From Octopus sinensis (lineage: Eukaryota), in the NCBI RefSeq assembly GCF_006345805.1, contig NC_043008.1:71486001-71550000 (forward strand): 64,000 bases of DNA. The letters run 5' to 3'. The notes below the pieces were generated by a model. It searched no databases. It was not told where the DNA came from and saw only the letters and a list, made by a program, of their open reading frames with translations. The translations under genes were made by a program, and so were the position numbers. Shown here in pieces: positions 3,001 to 58,592 of this stretch (position 1 is its first letter; each line of letters begins with the position of its first letter).

Positions 3001-3311
3001 CTTCCAAACACAATAGGAGTTATGCGTCTGTGCGCATACTATTACTCGCACTCTCTCTTCCTCCCTCTTTTTCCATTCGTCCCCCCTCTCTTTCTTTGTC
3101 ATACGCTCAGACATAATTTAAAGTAAATCTATCACAATTATAGAATTCTCTATTTTGTGATAATCATCTTCATGAAACTTGTTCAGCATCATAAATTATG
3201 AACTATATAAATGGAATTCATTATTATTAAACAATTGCAGCGTGGAAGGTGTTTATAAGCCATTTAAGAAACACACAAAACCGTTAGATTCACTTTAACA
3301 TATAAATTTAA

Positions 3312-3362
3312 TTTGTCAAAATATTTTCGTCGGTTTGGGACCGCGACCTGTTCACTGACAAA
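3312..3362 (-). ncRNA. Second copy of G3-C8 hammerhead (opposite arm)
   Basis: Reverse complement of 3419-3469 with one helix II mismatch. Confidence 0.75.
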
Positions 3363-3418
3363 GCTTCGTGCTGCATGAAGTTTTGTCAGTGAAGCTTTAT
3401 CGAGAAGCAGCACGAAGC

Positions 3419-3469
3419 TTTGTCAGTGAACAGGTCGCGGTCCCAAAGCGACGAAAATATTTTGACAAA
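3419..3469 (+). ncRNA. Type I hammerhead ribozyme, G3-C8 core variant
   Basis: TTTGTCA-GTGAACA-G-GTCGC(ggtcccaaa)GCGAC-GAAA-ATAT-TT-TGACAAA: 7 bp helix I, 5 bp helix II, palindromic AATATT helix III, UUU triplet. Confidence 0.8.
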
Positions 3470-3649
3470 TTAAATTCATATGTTGAAGTGAATCTAACGG
3501 GTTTGCGTTTTTTTTAAATGGCTTATAAACACCTTCCACGCTGCAATTGTTTTCGTTCCAGCACACGATCTCAGATCAAGTCTCTCGCTATGCAAGTACA
3601 TCTCCGTAATTATTATCAAAATGTTATGCTAAATAAGTTGTTCTTGAAT

Positions 3650-6934: not shown

Positions 6935-7088
6935 GGTGTGGCCCTATAGTAAGAATCGGGCTTCCCAACGACATGGCTCCGGGTTCAGTCAAACTGTGTG
7001 GCACCTTTGGAAAAGGACTTCTAGTATAACCGTACACGAACCAAAACCTGAGCGGTTTTAGTAGGCGGAAACTGAAAGAAGACCGTGG

Positions 7089-7171
<83 letters not shown>

Positions 7172-9748: not shown

Positions 9749-10122
9749 ATCTTATTTGAAAATAGTGTACATATAAACACAAGAGAAAACCACCCTTTAA
9801 CAGGTAATTTTTACATGGTAGAAGGAGCAGCCAAAACGGCCAAAACCACAATTTAATAGCAATTTTCGAAGTAAATGAAAAATGAAAGCTTTTACATTGT
9901 TCTCTTTTTGCGGTAATACCTAGGTTTCAGATTTCTTTAGCAAATAAGATTATCTGCCAGGCGAATTCTCATCAGTAACTGACCTCAATAACTAATTTAT
10001 GATTCAGAAACAAATAACATGTGTCCCATCATCATATGTTATAACGTTTCAAAATTCAGCCCGAAAGCGCAGTTTCAGTCGGCAGTAAATAGATAATGCC
10101 GAGCTCGGCATTATCTATTTAC

Positions 10123-10356
10123 GGCGGCGAGCTGGCAGAAACGTTAGCACGTCGGGCGAAATGCTTAGCGGTATTTCGGCTGCCGTTACGTTGTTAGTTC
10201 AAATTCCGCCGAGGTCGACTTTGCCTTTCATCATTTCGGGGTCGATAAATTAAGTACCAGTTACGCACTGGGGTCGATATAATCGACTTAATCCGTTTGT
10301 CTGTCCTTGTTTGTCCTCTCTGTGTTTAGCACCTTGTGGGTAGTAAAGAAATAGGT
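10123..10356 (+). mobile_element. SINE family A, full length, with 13 bp TSD
   Basis: GGCGGCGAGCTGGCAGAA head, GTTCAAATTCC B-box, Deu/Nin-like core; TSD ATTATCTATTTAC at 10110-10122 and 10357-10369. Confidence 0.9.
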
Positions 10357-22125: not shown

Positions 22126-22286
22126 TATATATATATATTTTTTTTACATATATATATATATATCACAATCAAGGACGGCCATAATAGGCCATTCACCCAC
22201 TAGAAATAACAGCCAAAAGCTTCAACCGCAAAATAAACTTAATTCTGTAAACCAGGAGAAAATAAAAGAAAACATTTACCCTGAAA

Positions 22287-22389
22287 TTCCTTATACGATG
22301 CACCGTTTCGTCTACTGTTTAATGGCAAACTAACCTGATTAAATTAAATCAAGCCAATCTACCATAGCCCTTAGATTCATCAGTAGGAA
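22287..22389 (-). ncRNA. Type I hammerhead ribozyme (inverted copy)
   Basis: Reverse complement of 22974-23076 with small indels. Confidence 0.85.
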
Positions 22390-22973
22390 TAGCCAAATCG
22401 GAACAGATATTTTTCCGAGGCATTCACGTCCATGCCTCGCCATATCTGACCTAAATTTTCAAATCGTCGCACTCGCGCCAAATTTTCGGCAGCAAATAAA
22501 TATAAGCCGCCGATTCCATTACGGAACTAACCAGAAAATTCATAATTAATCAATATAGGGAGGCAAAAAAATTTTGTAGAATTCTTTTGCCCCCAAGCGG
22601 CAAAAAGCTTCAACCGCAAAATAACAAATATATTGTTATTTTGCGGTTGAAGCTTTTTGGCTGTTATTTCTAGTGGGTGAATGGCCTATTATGGCCGTTC
22701 CTTGATTGTGATATTGAACTTAAAAATGGTTTATGACTATTTAATTTTTTCCCACTAGGCGCTGGGGCAAAGAATTCTACAAAATTTTTTTTGCCTCCCT
22801 ATATTGATTAATTATGAATTTTCTTTTCTGGTTAGTTCCGTAATGGAATCGGCGGCTTATATTTTTTGCTGCCGATAATTTGGCGCGAGTGCGACGATTT
22901 GAAAATTTTAGGTCAGATATTGGCGAGGCATGGACGTGAATGCCTCGTGAAAATATCTGTTCCGATTTGGCTA

Positions 22974-23076
22974 TTCCTTACTGATGAATCTAGGGCCTAT
23001 GGTAGATTGGCTTGATTTAATTAATCAGGTTAGTTTGCCATTAAACAGTAGACGAAACGGTGCATCGTATAAGGAA
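22974..23076 (+). ncRNA. Type I hammerhead ribozyme with extended helix II
   Basis: TTCCTTA-CTGATGA-A-TCTA...TAGA-C-GAAA-CGGTGCATCG-TA-TAAGGAA; GUA triplet, predicted cleavage after 23069. Confidence 0.9.
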
Positions 23077-23365
23077 TTTCAGGGTAAATGTTTTTTTAAT
23101 TTTTCTCCTGTTTTACAGAATAATGTTATTTTGCGGTTGAAGCTTTTTGGCTGTTATTTCTAGGGGTGAATGGCCTATTATGGCCGTTCCTTGATTGTGA
23201 TATGAACTTAAAAATGGTTTATGACTATTTAATTTTTTCCCACTAGGCCGCTGGGGGCAAAAGAATTCTACAAAATTTTTTTGCCTCCCTATATTGATTA
23301 ATTATATATATATTATAATATATATATATATATATATATGTATATGTATATATGTGTATATGTAT

Positions 23366-31364: not shown

Positions 31365-31615
31365 ATAGAATGGTTGTATACTGTCAATCTAACAAGAACG
31401 TGACAGTAGGGGGTACACCACCGCTGTATAGCCCTAGGAAGCATCGAACGCCTCCTGATAGCTTTGACACATTTTTCCCTATATGTATATAAGGACACAG
31501 GGAAAAAATGTGTCAAAGCTATCAGGAGGCGTTCGATGCTTCCTAGGGCTATTCAGTGGTGGTGTACCCCCTACTGTCACGTTCTTGTTAGATTGACAGT
31601 ATACAACCATTCTAT
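31365..31615. repeat. Near-perfect inverted repeat (arms 31365-31480 / 31499-31615)
   Basis: ~116 bp arms with ~3 differences, 18 bp spacer, (TA)n flanks. Confidence 0.95.
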
Positions 31616-36109: not shown

Positions 36110-36850
36110 CTATACCTTCTTTTGAGGAGGTGCTGTTGCAGTAATCCTTGGAGGTCTAAAGATCCTTAAGAGATATAGTTCTGCAATAGAACATATTGAA
36201 CGTCTTTTGATCCAGTTCATATAGGATCTGCTTTTGGAAGGGATTTTCAATTTGACTTCGTAGTTTGTTCTGTCGTCTTTACAAGAAATGGAAATTTTAG
36301 TTCTGTTGCTCTTAATGTATCTATGGTTTCTAGGAATGTGAATATATACTGAGTGTAAGAAAGTTCTACTACATTTGTCCAAACCTTAACAGAAAGGGGC
36401 GGGGTGAACCAAACAAGTTTCCGAGACCTATTCATACGACTCGATGATAGAAGAAGTGGGGGGTTGTAAAATATTTTATCAGTAAACTGCTATCTTGTAG
36501 ACATTTATAAAATGGCTCAGCCTTTTCGAATATTTCTTCGGAAAAGTGAAGGCAGCGATCATTCGGTTAATATTTGGAATCAAGTTTTTAAATACAATAG
36601 ATGGGTGGCAGGAATATTTATTAACAGATTTCTGGTAAGTACCAAGGGAGGGCTTATAGGAATTAAATTTGAGGTATAACGAAATATCTAAAAATTTAGA
36701 CCTAGTTATATTAGTGTCGATATCGATCTTAAGTCCTAAACGTTTGTTGAAGGTTTGCTGAAGGTAGAAATTAATTGCTTTCTAAACGAATCTACCACCT
36801 TGCTATCACAAGTCTGTGATCGCAAAAGACATCATTTGAAATTTCGTAAT
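36110..36850 (-). mobile_element. Penelope-like element relic (RT C-terminus/thumb-linker)
   Basis: IDTNITRSKFLDISL..SYKP..SCHPSIVFKNLIPNINRMI; EIFEKAEPFY; RKLVWFTPPLSVKVWTN; NRTKISISC. Confidence 0.8.
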
Positions 36851-41194: not shown

Positions 41195-41374
41195 GTTCTA
41201 TAGTTGAGAGATGAGGAATTATGTACGTTATTTACATTTGACGGATATTTGTCCTCATCTTGTTTATTGTTAACATAACTTTTCGGCTGATGTACTCTCC
41301 AGCCTTCATCAGGTGTCCAGGGGAATTTCGAACCTGGGTTCTCATTCCTAAGGTATTTTCCGATGGTGTTGTTG

Positions 41375-48993: not shown

Positions 48994-49872
48994 ATGCCAC
49001 TTACTCCGTTACCAATTCGTCAGTAGATTATTAAACTTCGAAGGAAGGATAATTTAAGTATTGGATCTATTGCACAGATTGTTAACAAGTCAAAAAGTGT
49101 TCTACACGGTATTCTTGAGGTCTACGATGATTGTGGTTCGTGTGAAGCAAGAAAGTTTACAGGTAGTCCAAGAAAAATGACCAAGAGAGAAGATCGTGCT
49201 ATGGTAAAGTTGGTTAAAAAGGACAGATTTAAAACTGCTGCTGCTGTTTCTCGGAAAATGAGCATTGTATTGAAGAAAACTTTATCTCGAAAAACTGTGT
49301 CTCGTCGTTTAGTTGAACATGATCTACAAGCAAGAGCACCTGCAGTGAAGCCACTGATCAGCTCCAAAAATAAAAAGTGTCGTCTTACCTTTGCAACCGA
49401 ACATGTGTTGTGGTCTCAAGAAAAATGGCAAACGGTGCATTTCAGTGATGAATCTAAGTTAATGTTATTTGGCTCAGATGGGAAAAGGTACGTTCGTAGA
49501 AAAGTAGGTGAAAAGTTGTCGCCTAAATGCCTTAAGACTAGTGTTAAATTCGGTGGAGGAAGTGTCATAGTTTGGGGAATGATATCTGGAGATGGTGTGG
49601 GCCCTTTGGTGCGATTACATGGAAAGGTAAATGCAGGAGTTTATAAACAACTTGTAAAAGATCATGTCTTTCCTGTGCTGAGAAATTCAACTAAGCGACC
49701 ACCCATATTCATGCAGGACAATGCCCCATGTCACAAGGCTAAGGTGGTCATGAACTTCCTCAAGGCTGAAAAGGTTATTCTTATGGATTGGCCTGCTCAA
49801 AGCCCAGATCTCAATCCTATTGAAAACGTATGGAATATTCTAGGAGAACGTTCGAAAGCGAGAAATCCTAAA
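48994..49872 (+). pseudogene. Tc1 DD34E transposase pseudogene
   Basis: In-frame ATG at 48994, premature TAG at codon 11, GSPR (GRPR-like), FSDESK, KFGGGSVIVWG, FMQDNAPCH, SPDLNPIE with exactly 34 residues between D and E; homology lost after ..ARNPK (3' truncated). Confidence 0.92.
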
Positions 49873-50121
49873 TACTTACATCTATATGCAAATGCTTGCA
49901 TTTATGCAGCCATACAATATGTAAACATTACAAGTATGTGGATGCAAACAGGAAGAATAAGACTCAAAATATGACTAAAGGCATATTTTCATTAATATTA
50001 ATCAGAAGCAACAGAATGATTCATGGTCCGAGAGTTTTGTGCGTTGGTAATTATTATAAAGTTTACTTCTGCTAAATATTGGTAAAAATCTATGTAAGCA
50101 TTTCTCTCTCTTTCTCTCTCT

Positions 50122-51679: not shown

Positions 51680-53081
51680 ATATGCAAGCCAGCAGAGATG
51701 AGTTGAATGCGCTACGAAATAGTTTAAACACATTACATTGTTATATGTTGATCGACGGAACTTTGTAGACGACAATGATTAGAAATAGAGAAGATTTATG
51801 ACTGGAGATAGAGGCTATTTCTGTGTCAGGAAAACAACATTGTGATATTGAATAGATAAACTTATTGGTTAGTTACATTTGGACAGTAAATAGCATCAAT
51901 GGAAGCTGTCTGGGCCGGAGATATCGATAATTGAGCGATTGTTTTCATGTTCTGATCAACGTATCATTGCATTCTCTTCGAAACAACTTCAAGTATTATA
52001 TATGTGTATGTATTTTGGCAAACAATAGAAAAGTGCACTCTATCTAATACTTGGGTGTAAATATATATATATTACAGTGGTGAATTTACTCTGTTACTAC
52101 TCAGAATTTCGCTGGACCTGTTGTTCAAGTGCCTCCTTTATAACAGAGAAGATATGTATCATTATGTACAAAATGCTTAAGAATAACGTAATTGGGATAA
52201 ATGTACAATAATTTATGCCTAGGGTTTAAATCACGAGTAAATAATTTAATGACAGAAAAGGGAAGCACGACCTTTTTATGCCCAGGTATCTAGCATCGTA
52301 GCTATGACGTGGGTGTATTAATATTGAAAAGATACATAAATCTACACATTCATGTAAATATAAATTAACAATGTGCTACGCGTCTCTTAGAATTATTTGC
52401 ATTAACTTAACCGATTTCAGAATATTAGTAAGTGAAAGTATTAACAACATTAGGAGCTGCGAGATTCGTACAAAATAGAACTGTGAACCAATCTGTGAAT
52501 ACTAGAATTAATCACATTTGTATTCTCATTTCTACATATATACACATTTCTGTTTCTCGCTTATGCATTAACAAACATATTTTTTTATATAATTCACAGA
52601 CGAACACGTAGAAGCCTCTACACGAAAACAAAATCAAAAGAGAAGGATAAACAGATAATGATTACATTGAAGTGTTGAATGTTTCTACCATGTACCACTA
52701 TAATCCAGACACACAGAAGTAATAAAATAAATATATGAGTTATGGAGGAAGAGTAAATAAAGGTGTAAAGAAAAACAAAATGTATTTGCAAATGTTCAAC
52801 GGTATGTCCTACCAGAAGAGAAAGTTCCGAAATCGAAAGAGACAAACTCATACAGTAAAAATCAAATGTAATACAAATTCCCCACGACATGTCCTCTACA
52901 GGTTGGATATCCAACAGAAGAAAACAACTCGCATTACACACACAACGCTAATACAAAAAATATTCAGTCCAAACTCATATCAAAACATATGTATGAATAC
53001 GTATGTGTATAATCGCCCTAACATTAATCAGAATAATAATAAGTCTAGTGGCTTCAAAGATAAAGTGATACATAACCCCTC

Positions 53082-53082
<1 letters not shown>

Positions 53083-53158
<76 letters not shown>

Positions 53159-53198
53159 TAATAATGATAATAATAATAATAATGAAAATAACAACAAC
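53083..53198. repeat. (AAT)n microsatellite
   Basis: Direct inspection. Confidence 0.95.
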
Positions 53199-53199
53199 A

Positions 53200-54220
53200 T
53201 GAGCACTCACAGAGCGCAAACCTCTCTCAAGCTAACACTAACTTCCTCCCAACGAATAGCCGGAGATGATTTTTTTAAAATAAGAATATCTGAAATAAAC
53301 TCGACTGCTCTCACAAACGAGAATACTAAAAATGAGCCGGATCGCTCACAAAAATTAAGTAAAAAACAGGAAATATGATCCAGAATGCTTGTCCGGTACC
53401 TGATCGATCCCATGGAATGCGAAGGTGGTGGGTGTGCAGACCGTGTTTGTAATGCTGTGTCTTTGTCGTCTGCAGTGGGAATAGAGACAATTTTCTCTAT
53501 AAAGGCCTTTTTTTTGGTCTATTCACTGATATAGTGCCTTTACGTCCATTAAGATCTATAGTGAAAAATTTATCCTTGCGTGAAAGAAAACGGAAAGGAC
53601 CTGCATACAGTGCTGTTAATGGAGTTTTAACAAGAAGTAAAGCTTCCTTCAAGGTAGAGCTAGAAATGCAATTTCAAGTAAGAGGCTTTAAACAAGAGCG
53701 ATATATTCAAAATTGGTAAAACTAAAACTTGTCGAGGATAACGTAAATTTATTATTGTTAGTGAATATGTTAGTGTTATTTAATTTCTGAACAGTTTTGC
53801 TGTCGTTTGTTTATATAGTTTGATTTCTTTATCCGTCAGTTTCTACTAGGAGAGAGACGCGAGTAAAATTAATAATAGAGGAACTAAGATAAAACCTTGG
53901 AAACAGCAACGCCGCCATAACATACGTGGAAACCATGAACGTACTTTCAAGTGAGATAATTAGAGATGGACTTGAAAGCCAACGTAAGGTTGTAATTCTT
54001 CATGTAAAGTAAAGTAAATATAAAAAATAATCCAGAATCCTTATCCGGTACCGGATCGATCCTGAAATCTAAGCACTTCGTGCCAGTTACAGGACAAAGA
54101 AGCATCCCTGAATATTTCGTCCGAATCCATCCTGTGATTCTTGAGATAGCTTGTCCACAGGCAAACAAAGAAACAAATATGACTGAAAAAATATCTCCGC
54201 CTTCGCTAAGGTGGAGATAA
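53200..54220 (+). mobile_element. Helentron-associated (HINE-like) element in two pieces (53200-53412, 54020-54220)
   Basis: GAGCACTCACAGAGCGC 5' end; TCCAGAAT.CTT.TCCGGTACC.GATCGATCC duplicated; terminal hairpin ATCTCCGCCTT cgct AAGGTGGAGAT. Confidence 0.6.
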
Positions 54221-54336: not shown

Positions 54337-54500
54337 GGCGCAAGAGTGACTGTGAAGTAAGTAGCTTGCTTACCAACCACATGGTTCTGGGTTCATTCCC
54401 ACTGCGTGGCACCTTGATCAGTGTCTTCTATTATAGCTTCGGGCCGACCAAAGCCTTGTGAGTGGATTTAGTAGATGGAAACCGAAATAAGCCCGTCGTA
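54337..54500 (+). mobile_element. SINE family B head (tRNA-like + CORE-like)
   Basis: GGCGCAAGAGTGACTGTG..GGGTTCATTCCC..GGCACCTTGATCAGTG. Confidence 0.8.
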
Positions 54501-54505
54501 TATAT

Positions 54506-54540
<35 letters not shown>

Positions 54541-54542
<2 letters not shown>

Positions 54543-55086
54543 TGGTCCCTCATAGCGTGTTGGTATCTACGCATAGTAGTACCCTCAATATAATATAAAT
54601 GAATATTTTCAAAGAGGAAGAATTTACGGATTTTTTTTCTCTTACGATGTTTTTCACGCTGACTACTGATAATTTCTTTTAAAGATTTTATCCTCAATTG
54701 TTAATTTATATTTTTCACCGGAATAGTTCAATACTGAATTTTTATTCCGACTAGGCAATTTGTTACCGAAATGCATTGCGAAAAAGCCCGCCATTTTCAT
54801 AGATATGTAAGGATAAACATTCGTACATGCTACGACGAATTCTACGGTTGGCTATCGAGTTTGTAATGTTATGTTTTTTCTTATATTTCTTGAGTCTGTT
54901 GCACTGACGAACATGAAATGCATAATCTGCATTAAATGCGAAATCACATGTGATATGTAACTGAATTCTTTTTTAAAATGATGTATTTTGAAGTTTTGCA
55001 TTCGGTAAAATTTTGTTTATTTTTAGTAGTTTTGCCCGCATTGGTCCCTCTTAGCGTGTTGGTATCTACGTATAGTAGTACCCTCA

Positions 55087-55095
<9 letters not shown>
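54541..55095 (+). mobile_element. Retrozyme-like element, 499 nt monomer + ~56 nt terminal redundancy
   Basis: 54541-54596 repeats at 55040-55095; single HHR; (TA)n on both sides. Confidence 0.88.
54898..54961 (+). ncRNA. Type I hammerhead ribozyme
   Basis: GTTGCA-CTGACGA-A-CAT...ATG-C-GAAA-TCACATGTGA-TA-TGTAAC; perfect palindrome ATCACATGTGAT; AUA triplet, predicted cleavage after 54955. Confidence 0.88.
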
Positions 55096-55119
<24 letters not shown>

Positions 55120-55396
55120 CAACAATTGAGGGTAAAATTAATTAATCAATTTCACCAAGTGTTCAGTATGTAAAAGGACCATTTAAGGCGAATTCAAAAT
55201 ATTACATTATATAATTAGGGCTTAGTAAAATAAATTACTTTGCCACATACTGAACATAATAGAAATAGCAGCCAAAAAAAAATTTTTTATCCATTTCTAC
55301 TACTTAAAGAAAATTTCTCTCAGATAATGTTTACTCAAGATAACTCACGAAGGTATGGAGGTAAATACAGAAAAATATCACAAGTACAAAGATCGT

Positions 55397-55457
55397 TTGA
55401 GAACGTCAACGTTTCTAGATTAGCCAAATAAAATCAGCATTTCTTTCGTCAGCTCAA
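55397..55457 (-). ncRNA. Type I hammerhead ribozyme (copy of 55774-55834)
   Basis: Exact reverse complement. Confidence 0.8.
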
Positions 55458-55773
55458 AATTTCTTAATTTGGATTTGGAAACACTAAAAAGAAAGAACTT
55501 TACCTCTCGGCGAACTTATCACCTCAGATGAACCAGCTCAAACTGCCAGTGCTAACAAATTCAAAATGCGCAAGCGTAAATTCCTGCACTCCTCTTCCAC
55601 CCACGTGGTCCATCTAGCAAACATTATATTTTAACCGCGAGGACCGAGGCAGTATGACAGAGAGAAATGAATTATAATATCAACAATTGAGGGTAAAATT
55701 AATTAATCAATTTCACCAAGTGTTCAGTATGTAAAAGGACCATTTAAGGCGAATTCAAAATATTACATTACTA

Positions 55774-55834
55774 TTGAGCTGACGAAAGAAATGCTGATTT
55801 TATTTGGCTAATCTAGAAACGTTGACGTTCTCAA
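55774..55834 (+). ncRNA. Type I hammerhead ribozyme
   Basis: TTGAG-CTGACGA-A-AGA...TCT-A-GAAA-CGTTGACG-TT-CTCAA; GUU triplet. Confidence 0.8.
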
Positions 55835-56949
55835 ACGATCTTTGTACTTGTGATATTTTTCTGTATTTACCTCCATACCTTCGTGAGTTATCTTGAGTAA
55901 ACATTATCTGAGAGAAATTTTCTTTAAGTAGTAGAAATGGATAAAAAATTTTTTTTTTGGCTGCTATTTCTATTAAGTTCAGTATGTGGCAAAGTAATTT
56001 ATTTTACTAAGCCCTAATTATATAATGTAATATTTTGAATTCGCCTTAAATGGTCCTTTTACATACTGAACACTTGGTGAAATTGATTAATTAATTTTAC
56101 CCTCAATTTTACCCACTGCTTTGTCACTTCATTCGAGAGTTGTGGGAGGCTATCGAGGTAGCCGATAAAGTCCATAAATCCTTGTGACTGACTACTTTCT
56201 CTGAAGAGTTGAGCAAAATGATGCTTGAAGCCGTGGATACTTGCTTTGAATCGTACAGTAAGCGTCCATCCTGATTCGTGAAAGACTGAATTGTGGCCTT
56301 CTTACCCTTAACCTCCCAAGCCCATTAAACTCATTGAATTTATTCTTGTTGTAACAGATTATTACTAACGTTGACAAAGCATCCTTCGAATAAATTGCAA
56401 GTTGGATGCATTTCTAATTGCCTCCTCAGTTTACTAACAAACTCCCCCTCCTCCTCCTCATTCTCCTCTAATCTATTTCTCTCTAAACACAATAACCACT
56501 GTATTTAATTGCCCTTGTTGTTGACTACTTCACCTGTCAAATGCCGCTTCACTAGGTCGCTAATTCAGTTTCCGCATTTATCTTTTCGTGTTGGGAAAGA
56601 TGCATTCCATTTCCAGTAACCGGATTCCTGTCTATGTGTCCTATCTGAAGTAATTACGCAGATTACAAGTTTGTGATTTGTGTAACCGGCCAGTTATAGA
56701 GATTTTAAAAAACTATATTTTCCAGCTAACTTAACTTATAATCAAAGCACGATTTGGAAAACCCATTTTTGTGTAAGTTGACATTTTCGAAAATTCCGTT
56801 GGGTACCTATTAAAATCTGGAAACGTCGGAACATGTTTTGCAGGGAAATGTATCGCCTTCTGTGTGTTAAACCTACACAATCCATCTTGCGTGCAAAACA
56901 ATATTCTACTCCCCTGGTACGAACCGTGGTGTGGTGGTGCTGATGAGAA

Positions 56950-58592
56950 AGGATCTGAAGTAGGGGGACCAAAGGGAAAATTTAGGTTCATAACTCTCTT
57001 GAGCGCAGCTTACAAGATTTTGGCCAAGGCGTTAGCCAACAGGATAGCGCGTGTCGTCAATAAACTGGCCGGTGTCGAGCAAACAAAGTTATCCTGAGTA
57101 AATCTATCAACGACAACCTCCATGTCAGCACGCGTTAAATCATAGACAACGTAGTGAAGGAACCAGTCATGGGTAGGGCCCTGATCATTTGGGATCAAAA
57201 GCTTTTGATAGAGTCTACCATCAATCCTTGAAAACTCTCCTCGTAGCACCTGGTTTCGATCGCGTTTTCAGAAGCTGGATCGCTGCAGTATCCATCGACA
57301 TCTTCTCGGTGGTCAAAGTCAATGGCCACCTATCGGAAACGTTTATTATCGTACGTTCGGCTCATCAAAGATGCCCACTCTAGCCTCGTCTCTATGTACT
57401 GGCCCTCGAGCCACCACTAAGCAAGTTTGATGTTTCGAAAGGTGTATCACGTGAGTTAGGATGCGGAAATCTCGTGTCGGCTTATGTGGATGACATCACC
57501 CTAATAGTGTCGGACATCTCGTAAATCGAGGTGATCAACACTACCTTAAAGAGTACGAAGCGATTACAGGAGCAACGATTCACCCGGAGCATTTAGTGGA
57601 TATGGAGCTCGGCATCAGGAAAGGCAGTTTCATGTCGGTTAAAATGCTTGGAGTCTGCTTTGTTCCGCACCTCCAGGTGGACTAGAACTGATGTCAAGTG
57701 ACGAGAAGGGAATTTGCTCTTCGGTTTTCTATGTAAAGAACGTGTTCAACTTACAGCCATCTGGCTGTTGGATAGTGATATCGGTGGCAGTTCCTCATTG
57801 GAATTCGACAGGGGAGCAGTGGTGGGCAACAGCGATTACTTCCTCGGGAAAACTTTCGGGCCGTGGCCTATTGATAATCTCCAGATATTCTTGTTCTAGT
57901 AATGCTATCGGGAGTTCTGCCTGTTCAAGACAGGCTCTACAGGAACCAAAATATTGTCAGACGGATGTGTGTGAGAGGTGCGCAGGGCGATGAAACCGTC
58001 TAGTCCCTGGGTATTAATGACACGTAAATCTTTGCGGATTAGCTGCTGATATGTGTAGGACGGATCAGGTTGTCAGCCGAATCCATCGTGAAGATCGCCA
58101 TGCTACCTTGCTTTAGACTGGAAGGGAAGACAGTTTTCTTCTACCTACTGGCTATGCGAAAGAGCTAGTATGATGCACGAAGTTGAAAGAACCAAAGAGA
58201 GATATTTGCTTCGGATAAGCCCTCATCGACTTTTCCAAGTTCTATTTGTAAAGGGAATTGAGGGTGGAGAGGGAAATATTGCCTCCCTAGTATTTTTGTT
58301 GAAAGGTGAGTGAATATGGCGCGAATGGCCCGTGTAAATGTGTCTACTCTGAACGTATACTTCTAAGCTTGAGGAAAGAGCCATCTGTTGAGATCGGGTA
58401 ATCAGGATGTGTGAGGTTTTTACGATGTCTCGGATTCGAAGATCCCCCATTTGAGGATTTTTATTTTTGGATTGTGTTAAATATTTTTGCTTTATTTTTA
58501 TTAAAAAAGTTTTGTGTTAAACCCGACGTGTCATTTGTATCATATCGTCCCTTTTTGTCTTGTGTTCGGCCCTTCTGGACAATAAAGGTAAG
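56950..58592 (+). mobile_element. Tx1/L1-like LINE relic (RT through zf-RVT and 3' UTR)
   Basis: FRFITLLSAAYKILAKALANRI, SKAFDRVYH, HQRCPL*P..ALEP, AYVDDI, CERC..DETV; multiple stops. Confidence 0.88.

Follow-up and report, generated by a model that had tools for sequence, protein, structure and literature searches.

A 499-nt non-coding unit with a predicted type I hammerhead ribozyme, present in the window as a 1.11-unit insertion (element A), is the repeat of a family that exists in many copies and in which the unit closes on itself. The window is the whole stretch of 64,000 nucleotides that was analysed. Element A is real, well formed and explained by a known class: it is probably a non-LTR retrozyme, a non-autonomous Penelope-like element, of a probable cephalopod family. 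It was very probably copied from an RNA longer than the unit, as a passenger of a Penelope-like element. The full proposal, in which that RNA was also a circle, is given an even chance.

Structure and insertion site of element A

The features of the element and of its surroundings are as follows.
54337–54500 (+): SINE-like head with A-box- and B-box-like words, by inspection
54499–54542 (no strand): left part of the (TA)n target, native to the SINE-like repeat
54541–55096 (+): element A, the non-coding 499-nt unit repeated 1.11 times, with a GC content of 32%
54541–54597 (+): left copy of the terminal overlap, with the inferred 5′ truncation point
54650–54713 (+): region common to A and the neighbouring element B, 70% over 67 columns
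54898–54961 (+): predicted type I hammerhead of A, cut after 54955
55040–55096 (+): right copy of the terminal overlap, ending CCTCAAT...ATAT; inferred reverse-transcription start of A
55087–55119 (no strand): right part of the (TA)n target, common to A and B, tail-to-tail

The initial annotation had described a 499-nt monomer with about 56 nt of terminal redundancy and only two differences between the ends. Both statements hold. The copies of the overlap, 54541–54597 and 55040–55096, are spaced by 499 nt and agree at 55 of 57 positions, with a BLAST E of 3e-21 inside the window; they differ at 54552/55051 and 54572/55071. As the last 5–7 nt are AT-only and could derive from the target, "about 56" is a fair figure for an overlap of 56–57 nt. 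Element A contains one hammerhead, which is internal, and no ATG-initiated reading frame of more than 55 codons; (TA)n flanks both ends. There is no second copy of A within the 64-kb window.

The (TA)n adjoining A had been attributed to the head of a SINE. The left tract does belong to a SINE-like repeat, since the one other copy of the head in the window (6948–7090, 74% identical) precedes the same microsatellite; the description is incomplete in that (TA)n also stands on the right. The segment 54337–54500 is presumably a SINE; ARAGORN finds no tRNA in it. Words of this SINE-like repeat would suggest an octopus as the host. Upstream, (TAA)n tracts interrupt the unclassified sequence of 52500–54216, in which 53357–53410 and 54007–54062 form an 82% repeat.

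Terminal overlaps of this size could be taken for the fixed 45–56-nt LTRs of a TRIM or an LTR-type retrozyme. Within the overlap, 54543–54587 happens to begin with TG and finish with CA (by inspection), in keeping with such an element. However, no primer-binding site follows the left overlap, and the 23 nt before the right overlap hold 7 purines and no polypurine tract. The hammerhead is of type I and lies outside the overlaps, whereas that of LTR retrozymes is of type III and within the LTR. In the family, 54711 serves as the end of other copies, and the overlap is traversed head-to-tail by contigs. The LTR origin is thus largely refuted and must be regarded as exceedingly improbable.

The unit is that of a multi-copy family

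As the window holds no second copy, the family was examined in contigs of public sequencing runs. The A stretch, or part of it, is held by 20 of the 24 runs listed. Four runs, three guessed to be DNA and one RNA, were aligned at the level of contigs only, and 65, 1090, 679 and 38 contigs fitted A. Contig depth was not taken as copy number, and a depth dip over the hammerhead in one run was left unused.

In all four runs, contigs span the 55039|55040 boundary at which the right overlap begins. Two contigs continue head-to-tail past the overlap, with joints leading back by 499 nt (in the guessed-RNA run) and 497 nt (in a run guessed to be DNA), one contig each. The 32 pieces listed, of 1897, bridge every one of the 499 positions of the loop with 31 letters on each side; the DNA-guessed pieces among them bridge 436. 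Because contigs cross the overlap and run on head-to-tail, the 56 nt are ordinary family sequence and the unit is circularly permuted. Contigs also read through the cut site at 54955|54956. No copy with two hammerheads was seen among the contigs, which are too short to span two.

The initial annotation had put forward two other sources of the repeated ends, and neither survives. Direct repeats of the LTR or TRIM kind do not fit an overlap that is crossed by contigs, two of them running on head-to-tail. A locus-specific target or local duplication of 56 nt, for which it can be said that animal retrozymes are described with target duplications of more than 4 bp (PMC7229834), is refuted by the continuity of these 56 nt with the unit in contigs of all four runs, and scarcely any weight is left to it. 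As both sources failed on the contig evidence, a template longer than the unit is supported.

The 1.1-mer might instead have arisen at the DNA level, if deletion or recombination inside the (TA)n had cut back an originally longer tandem or a pair of successive insertions. The 3′ half of the SINE-like repeat was not found beyond A and B, so that the site may have been rearranged, and a non-seamless join of 54590 to 54553 in one contig indicates that stacking of copies may occur. Element A itself, however, is seamless, a contig of depth 197 passes 54711 with 0 differences, and the right end of A falls on a motif-defined ATAT. An origin of this kind is considered unlikely. The join in the 54590–54553 contig is head-to-tail and lies at the upstream end site; another single contig joins 54878 to 54594, which would lose the hammerhead and adjoins an ATAT site.

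The predicted hammerhead is constrained

An internal hammerhead cut after 54955 had been annotated, and three observations bear this out: the pattern, the three-helix minimum free energy (MFE) fold, and the constraint in a diverged contig. The pattern comprises a 6-bp stem I and a 4-bp stem III with a palindromic loop; an A.C pair replaces G-C at 10.1-11.1. The MFE fold of the isolated motif recovers the three hammerhead helices, with no extra stability over shuffled sequences (z 0.07). The motif has no Rfam match at gathering score, nor up to E 10; over the window, Rfam gives nothing at gathering score and, up to E 10, only (TA)n-driven and other sub-threshold matches. In the predicted fold of the circle, the pairing probability is 0.2–0.3 for stem III and about 0.5 for stem I, which is not decisive.

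The diverged family contig differs from A by about 14% (35 differences over 257 nt). Of its eight changes within the 64-nt motif, seven fall outside the 48 positions that are paired or belong to the core (P 1.3e-4); these changes were ascribed to the contig by matching depth, from all but 5 of the variant rows. One change restores G-C at 10.1-11.1, and a flanking pair changes from C-G to U-A. In most copies of the family, position 10.1 is A, the depth of G being 20.5/362.8, 2636/9789, 46/29628 and 43/89.8 in the four runs. From these sequence comparisons, the hammerhead of A is probably real despite the lack of an Rfam call and a stability at the level of shuffles. With its single predicted ribozyme, A could not itself release a monomer. 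The subfamily diverged by about 14%, with G-C at 10.1-11.1 and also loose ends at 54880 and 55058, is a candidate for a more active ribozyme. The hammerhead motif of A had 0 matches in metagenome and viral contigs.

Copies end at few sites behind a conserved motif

Three right ends were found. That of A itself, 55095, is equivalent to 54596 and lies 140 nt past the cut. Among the 18 of 160 loose ends listed, one contig passes into (AT)n at 54606 (150 nt past the cut) and 21 contigs do so at 54711 (255 nt past the cut), the latter in all four runs (2, 5, 13 and 1). All three are ATAT words, of which the unit has seven, and each lies at most 25 nt after one of the two CCTCAAT motifs of the unit. 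None of the same 18 listed ends lies at the ATAT words of 54806, 54886 or 54956, or at the cut site. Left ends are barely visible; those listed include a single AT-rich one, which lies before 54697 and is found in 2 contigs.

The clustering of right ends at few ATAT sites indicates that the permutation point is not free and that there are preferred entry sites. This modifies two earlier expectations. The ends of A had been described as unrelated to the cut; they are, without being arbitrary, since the right end is an ATAT behind CCTCAAT, 140 nt past the cut. Other copies were expected to have different permutation points; there is indeed more than one right end, but the ends are confined to a few ATAT sites behind the conserved motif, a pattern that suits the internal start of reverse transcription in Penelope-like elements.

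All six matches to the end motif in the 64 kb lie within A or B, where 1.35 are expected. In metagenomes, the motif occurs at 27 loci, none of which extends over more than 45 nt or has a hammerhead-like pattern; as candidate relatives they were therefore set aside as chance matches. An autonomous partner carrying the end motif of A was not found in the supplement of PMC8557442, where line breaks can hide matches.

A second element enters the same target

On the right, the (TA)n tract is entered from the opposite side by element B, which has its own, different hammerhead, cut after 55402.
55116–55770 (−): element B, a 561-nt unit with a 94-nt identical overlap
55774–56108 (+): inverted, 5′-truncated copy of B, 335 nt, 99.4% identical, beginning at the hammerhead

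A and B were compared by local tests, a global alignment having given no useful information. Significant similarity is limited to about 65 nt of the end region, with E 2e-5 and a score that 0 of 500 shuffles attain. For the hammerhead, post-cut and pre-cut regions, 43, 370 and 190 of 500 shuffles attain it, and the similarity is not significant. The similarity stops at the 54711 site of A and at the terminus of B, which are matching places. The end motif common to A and B is a candidate recognition signal. By eye, the 5′ truncation of B falls at a spot resembling the upstream end site of A.

Further features of the window may be recorded here.
3229–3552, 22160–23305 and 31365–31615: long palindromes or inverted structures, nearly perfect, that may be further inversions or MITEs
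9752–10125 (−): a third piece of hammerhead-like sequence; it opens at its 5′ end with a near-palindrome of 44 nt, has a degenerate stem I and finishes in (GATA)n some 160 nt after the cut
36200–36830 (−), approximate: fragment of a decayed reverse transcriptase (RT), by eye similar to the Penelope-like RTs of the Hydra clade
41250–41370 (−): short end of Penelope-like type, adjoining a (TAA)n tract, in which the hammerhead-like core is minimal
49027–49974 (+): 315-codon frame of a Tc1/mariner-type transposase (PF01498, PF13358)
56777–57097 (+): LINE-type RT fragment (weak PF00078, E 0.008), just past the inverted copy of B

Pfam assigned no family to three suspected Penelope fragments and gave no match for 36200–36830.

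Circular or linear template

The data show directly how A is built, that its family has many copies, that the unit closes, that right ends cluster and that the hammerhead is under constraint. The proposed route would begin with transcription of a donor of two or more units. The transcript would be cut twice by its ribozymes and ligated into a circle. A Penelope-like RT/endonuclease, probably of the Hydra clade, would nick the (TA)n tract, and reverse transcription would start inside the RNA at the ATAT just after CCTCAAT, primed by pairing of ATAT with the target. The enzyme would likely run 1.11 times round the circle and stop at 54541, a presumed truncation. The idea that such elements are copied by going more than once round an RNA circle was put forward in 2014 (PMC4209133; also PMC7229834), and circles of retrozymes are reported from a mussel, a coral and the axolotl (PMC7229834).

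The initial annotation favoured an RT running slightly more than once around a circular RNA. Of this, the template longer than the unit is supported; the circle is not established, as an uncut tandem transcript yields the same 1.1-mer. With the same element and enzyme, an uncut read-through transcript of a tandem donor would give an overlap that is the ordinary pLTR or tail of Penelope-like elements, with a fixed internal start and a 5′ truncation 57 nt into the next unit. This is a serious alternative, held to have somewhat less than an even chance.

Several observations point to an uncut template. Initiation is internal and uncut RNA is the dominant substrate in the experiments of PMC11167929: the Anolis Penelope-like protein used uncut RNA in vitro and inserted ribozyme mutants equally, and the purified protein had two internal RT start sites downstream of the hammerhead, cleavage being dispensable. 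Even Naiads, although they have no canonical hammerheads, show partial tandems as a rule (PMC8557442). Most copies of the A family have A.C at 10.1-11.1, eight of nine frog retrozyme dimers did not cleave (bioRxiv 10.64898/2026.07.22.740005), and B has the same build as A plus an inversion. The experiments in vitro, the A.C pair of most copies and the failure of most frog dimers to cleave favour the linear route. On the other hand, an uncut template leaves the hammerhead constraint in a non-coding unit unexplained, unless the fold is a protein-binding or processing signal. This constraint, together with the read-through of the cut site, modestly favours the circle. The two differences between the ends fit the decay of once-identical ends (1.2–1.6 expected from 6–8 private changes per 555 nt), and fit a homogeneous tandem equally.

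Relation to known elements

Non-LTR retrozymes have been argued to be non-autonomous derivatives of Penelope-like elements (bioRxiv 10.64898/2026.07.22.740005). Like A, those of metazoans have a non-coding, low-GC, permuted head-to-tail unit with one type I hammerhead; solo monomers are known, and movement by Penelope-like elements via circles has been proposed (Cervera and de la Pena 2020; Li et al. 2026). The 499 nt of A exceed the 150–450 nt first quoted and fall within 51–972 nt. As a 1.1-mer, A fails the two-ribozyme rule of Li et al. for 'active' elements. Motif-defined ends and (TA)n targeting are not described in the sections of PMC7229834 and bioRxiv 10.64898/2026.07.22.740005 on which this comparison draws.

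A and B share hallmarks of Penelope-like elements: the partial tandem, the inverted truncated copy (B) and an opposite-strand joint (one A-family contig). Known traits of the group are partial tandems, inverted truncated copies, 5′ palindromes, microsatellite targets and discrete 3′ ends (PMC8557442, PMC3846280). By comparison, the driving enzyme is probably of the Hydra clade, in which 26 of 27 families have a (TA)n target and whose tabulated hammerheads have the layout of A, B and the third hammerhead-like piece; copies of an octopus member end at one site (PMC8557442 supplement). Hydra-clade elements share with A the (TA)n target and a hammerhead layout near a fixed 3′ end (layout by eye), and Hydra-1_Obim ends in ATATA, like the ATAT end of A. 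In contrast to Hydra-1_Obim, A has no RT/endonuclease frame, and no sequence match between the two is visible by eye; the distance from end to cut is 140–255 nt in A and about 40 nt in the clade (PMC8557442).

With the pLTR and tail of Penelope/Poseidon (Arkhipova 2013, PMC3846280; Frangieh 2024, PMC11167929), the shared features are partial tandems, inverted truncated copies, 5′ palindromes and two internal start sites downstream of the hammerhead. The motif sites of A are 115 nt apart, whereas the known Penelope/Poseidon tail is 30–40 nt. The starts of A coincide with 4–6 nt of ATAT microhomology to the target, unlike Penelope/Poseidon; the start site of the Anolis protein is not homologous to its target (PMC11167929). 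Chlamys elements such as MRC1 are non-autonomous Penelope-like passengers with pLTR-like overlaps, once mistaken for LTR elements; most lack hammerheads and their host is algal, whereas A has a predicted hammerhead (PMC8557442).

Hammerhead loci have been reported from squid, and Penelope-like families with recent activity from octopus (PMC6962438, PMC13282606); the portions of these two papers considered here do not describe the A family. No paper on cephalopod retrozymes was found in the literature searched.

Implications

The concept of the retrozyme and its circle is already published. What is added is a probable cephalopod family, an end signal common to two otherwise unrelated units, and a test for the circle in genome data. 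A tentative extension is that several unrelated hammerhead circles share a cis-signal, TTTTAYCCTCAATTGTT followed by ATAT, that would recruit the Hydra-clade enzyme, fix the entry of the RT and allow priming paired with (TA)n; this is rather doubtful at present. The short, young, multi-copy A family makes it possible to test how the head-to-tail arrangement of Penelope-like elements and retrozymes arises and what the ribozyme is for. With its motif-defined ends, the test can be made from one assembly, through the identity of overlap ends and the linkage across the cut, and with small RNAs at the bench. If the shared signal is real, many insertions of near-unit length would be a genomic record deciding between circular and linear templates of Penelope-like elements.
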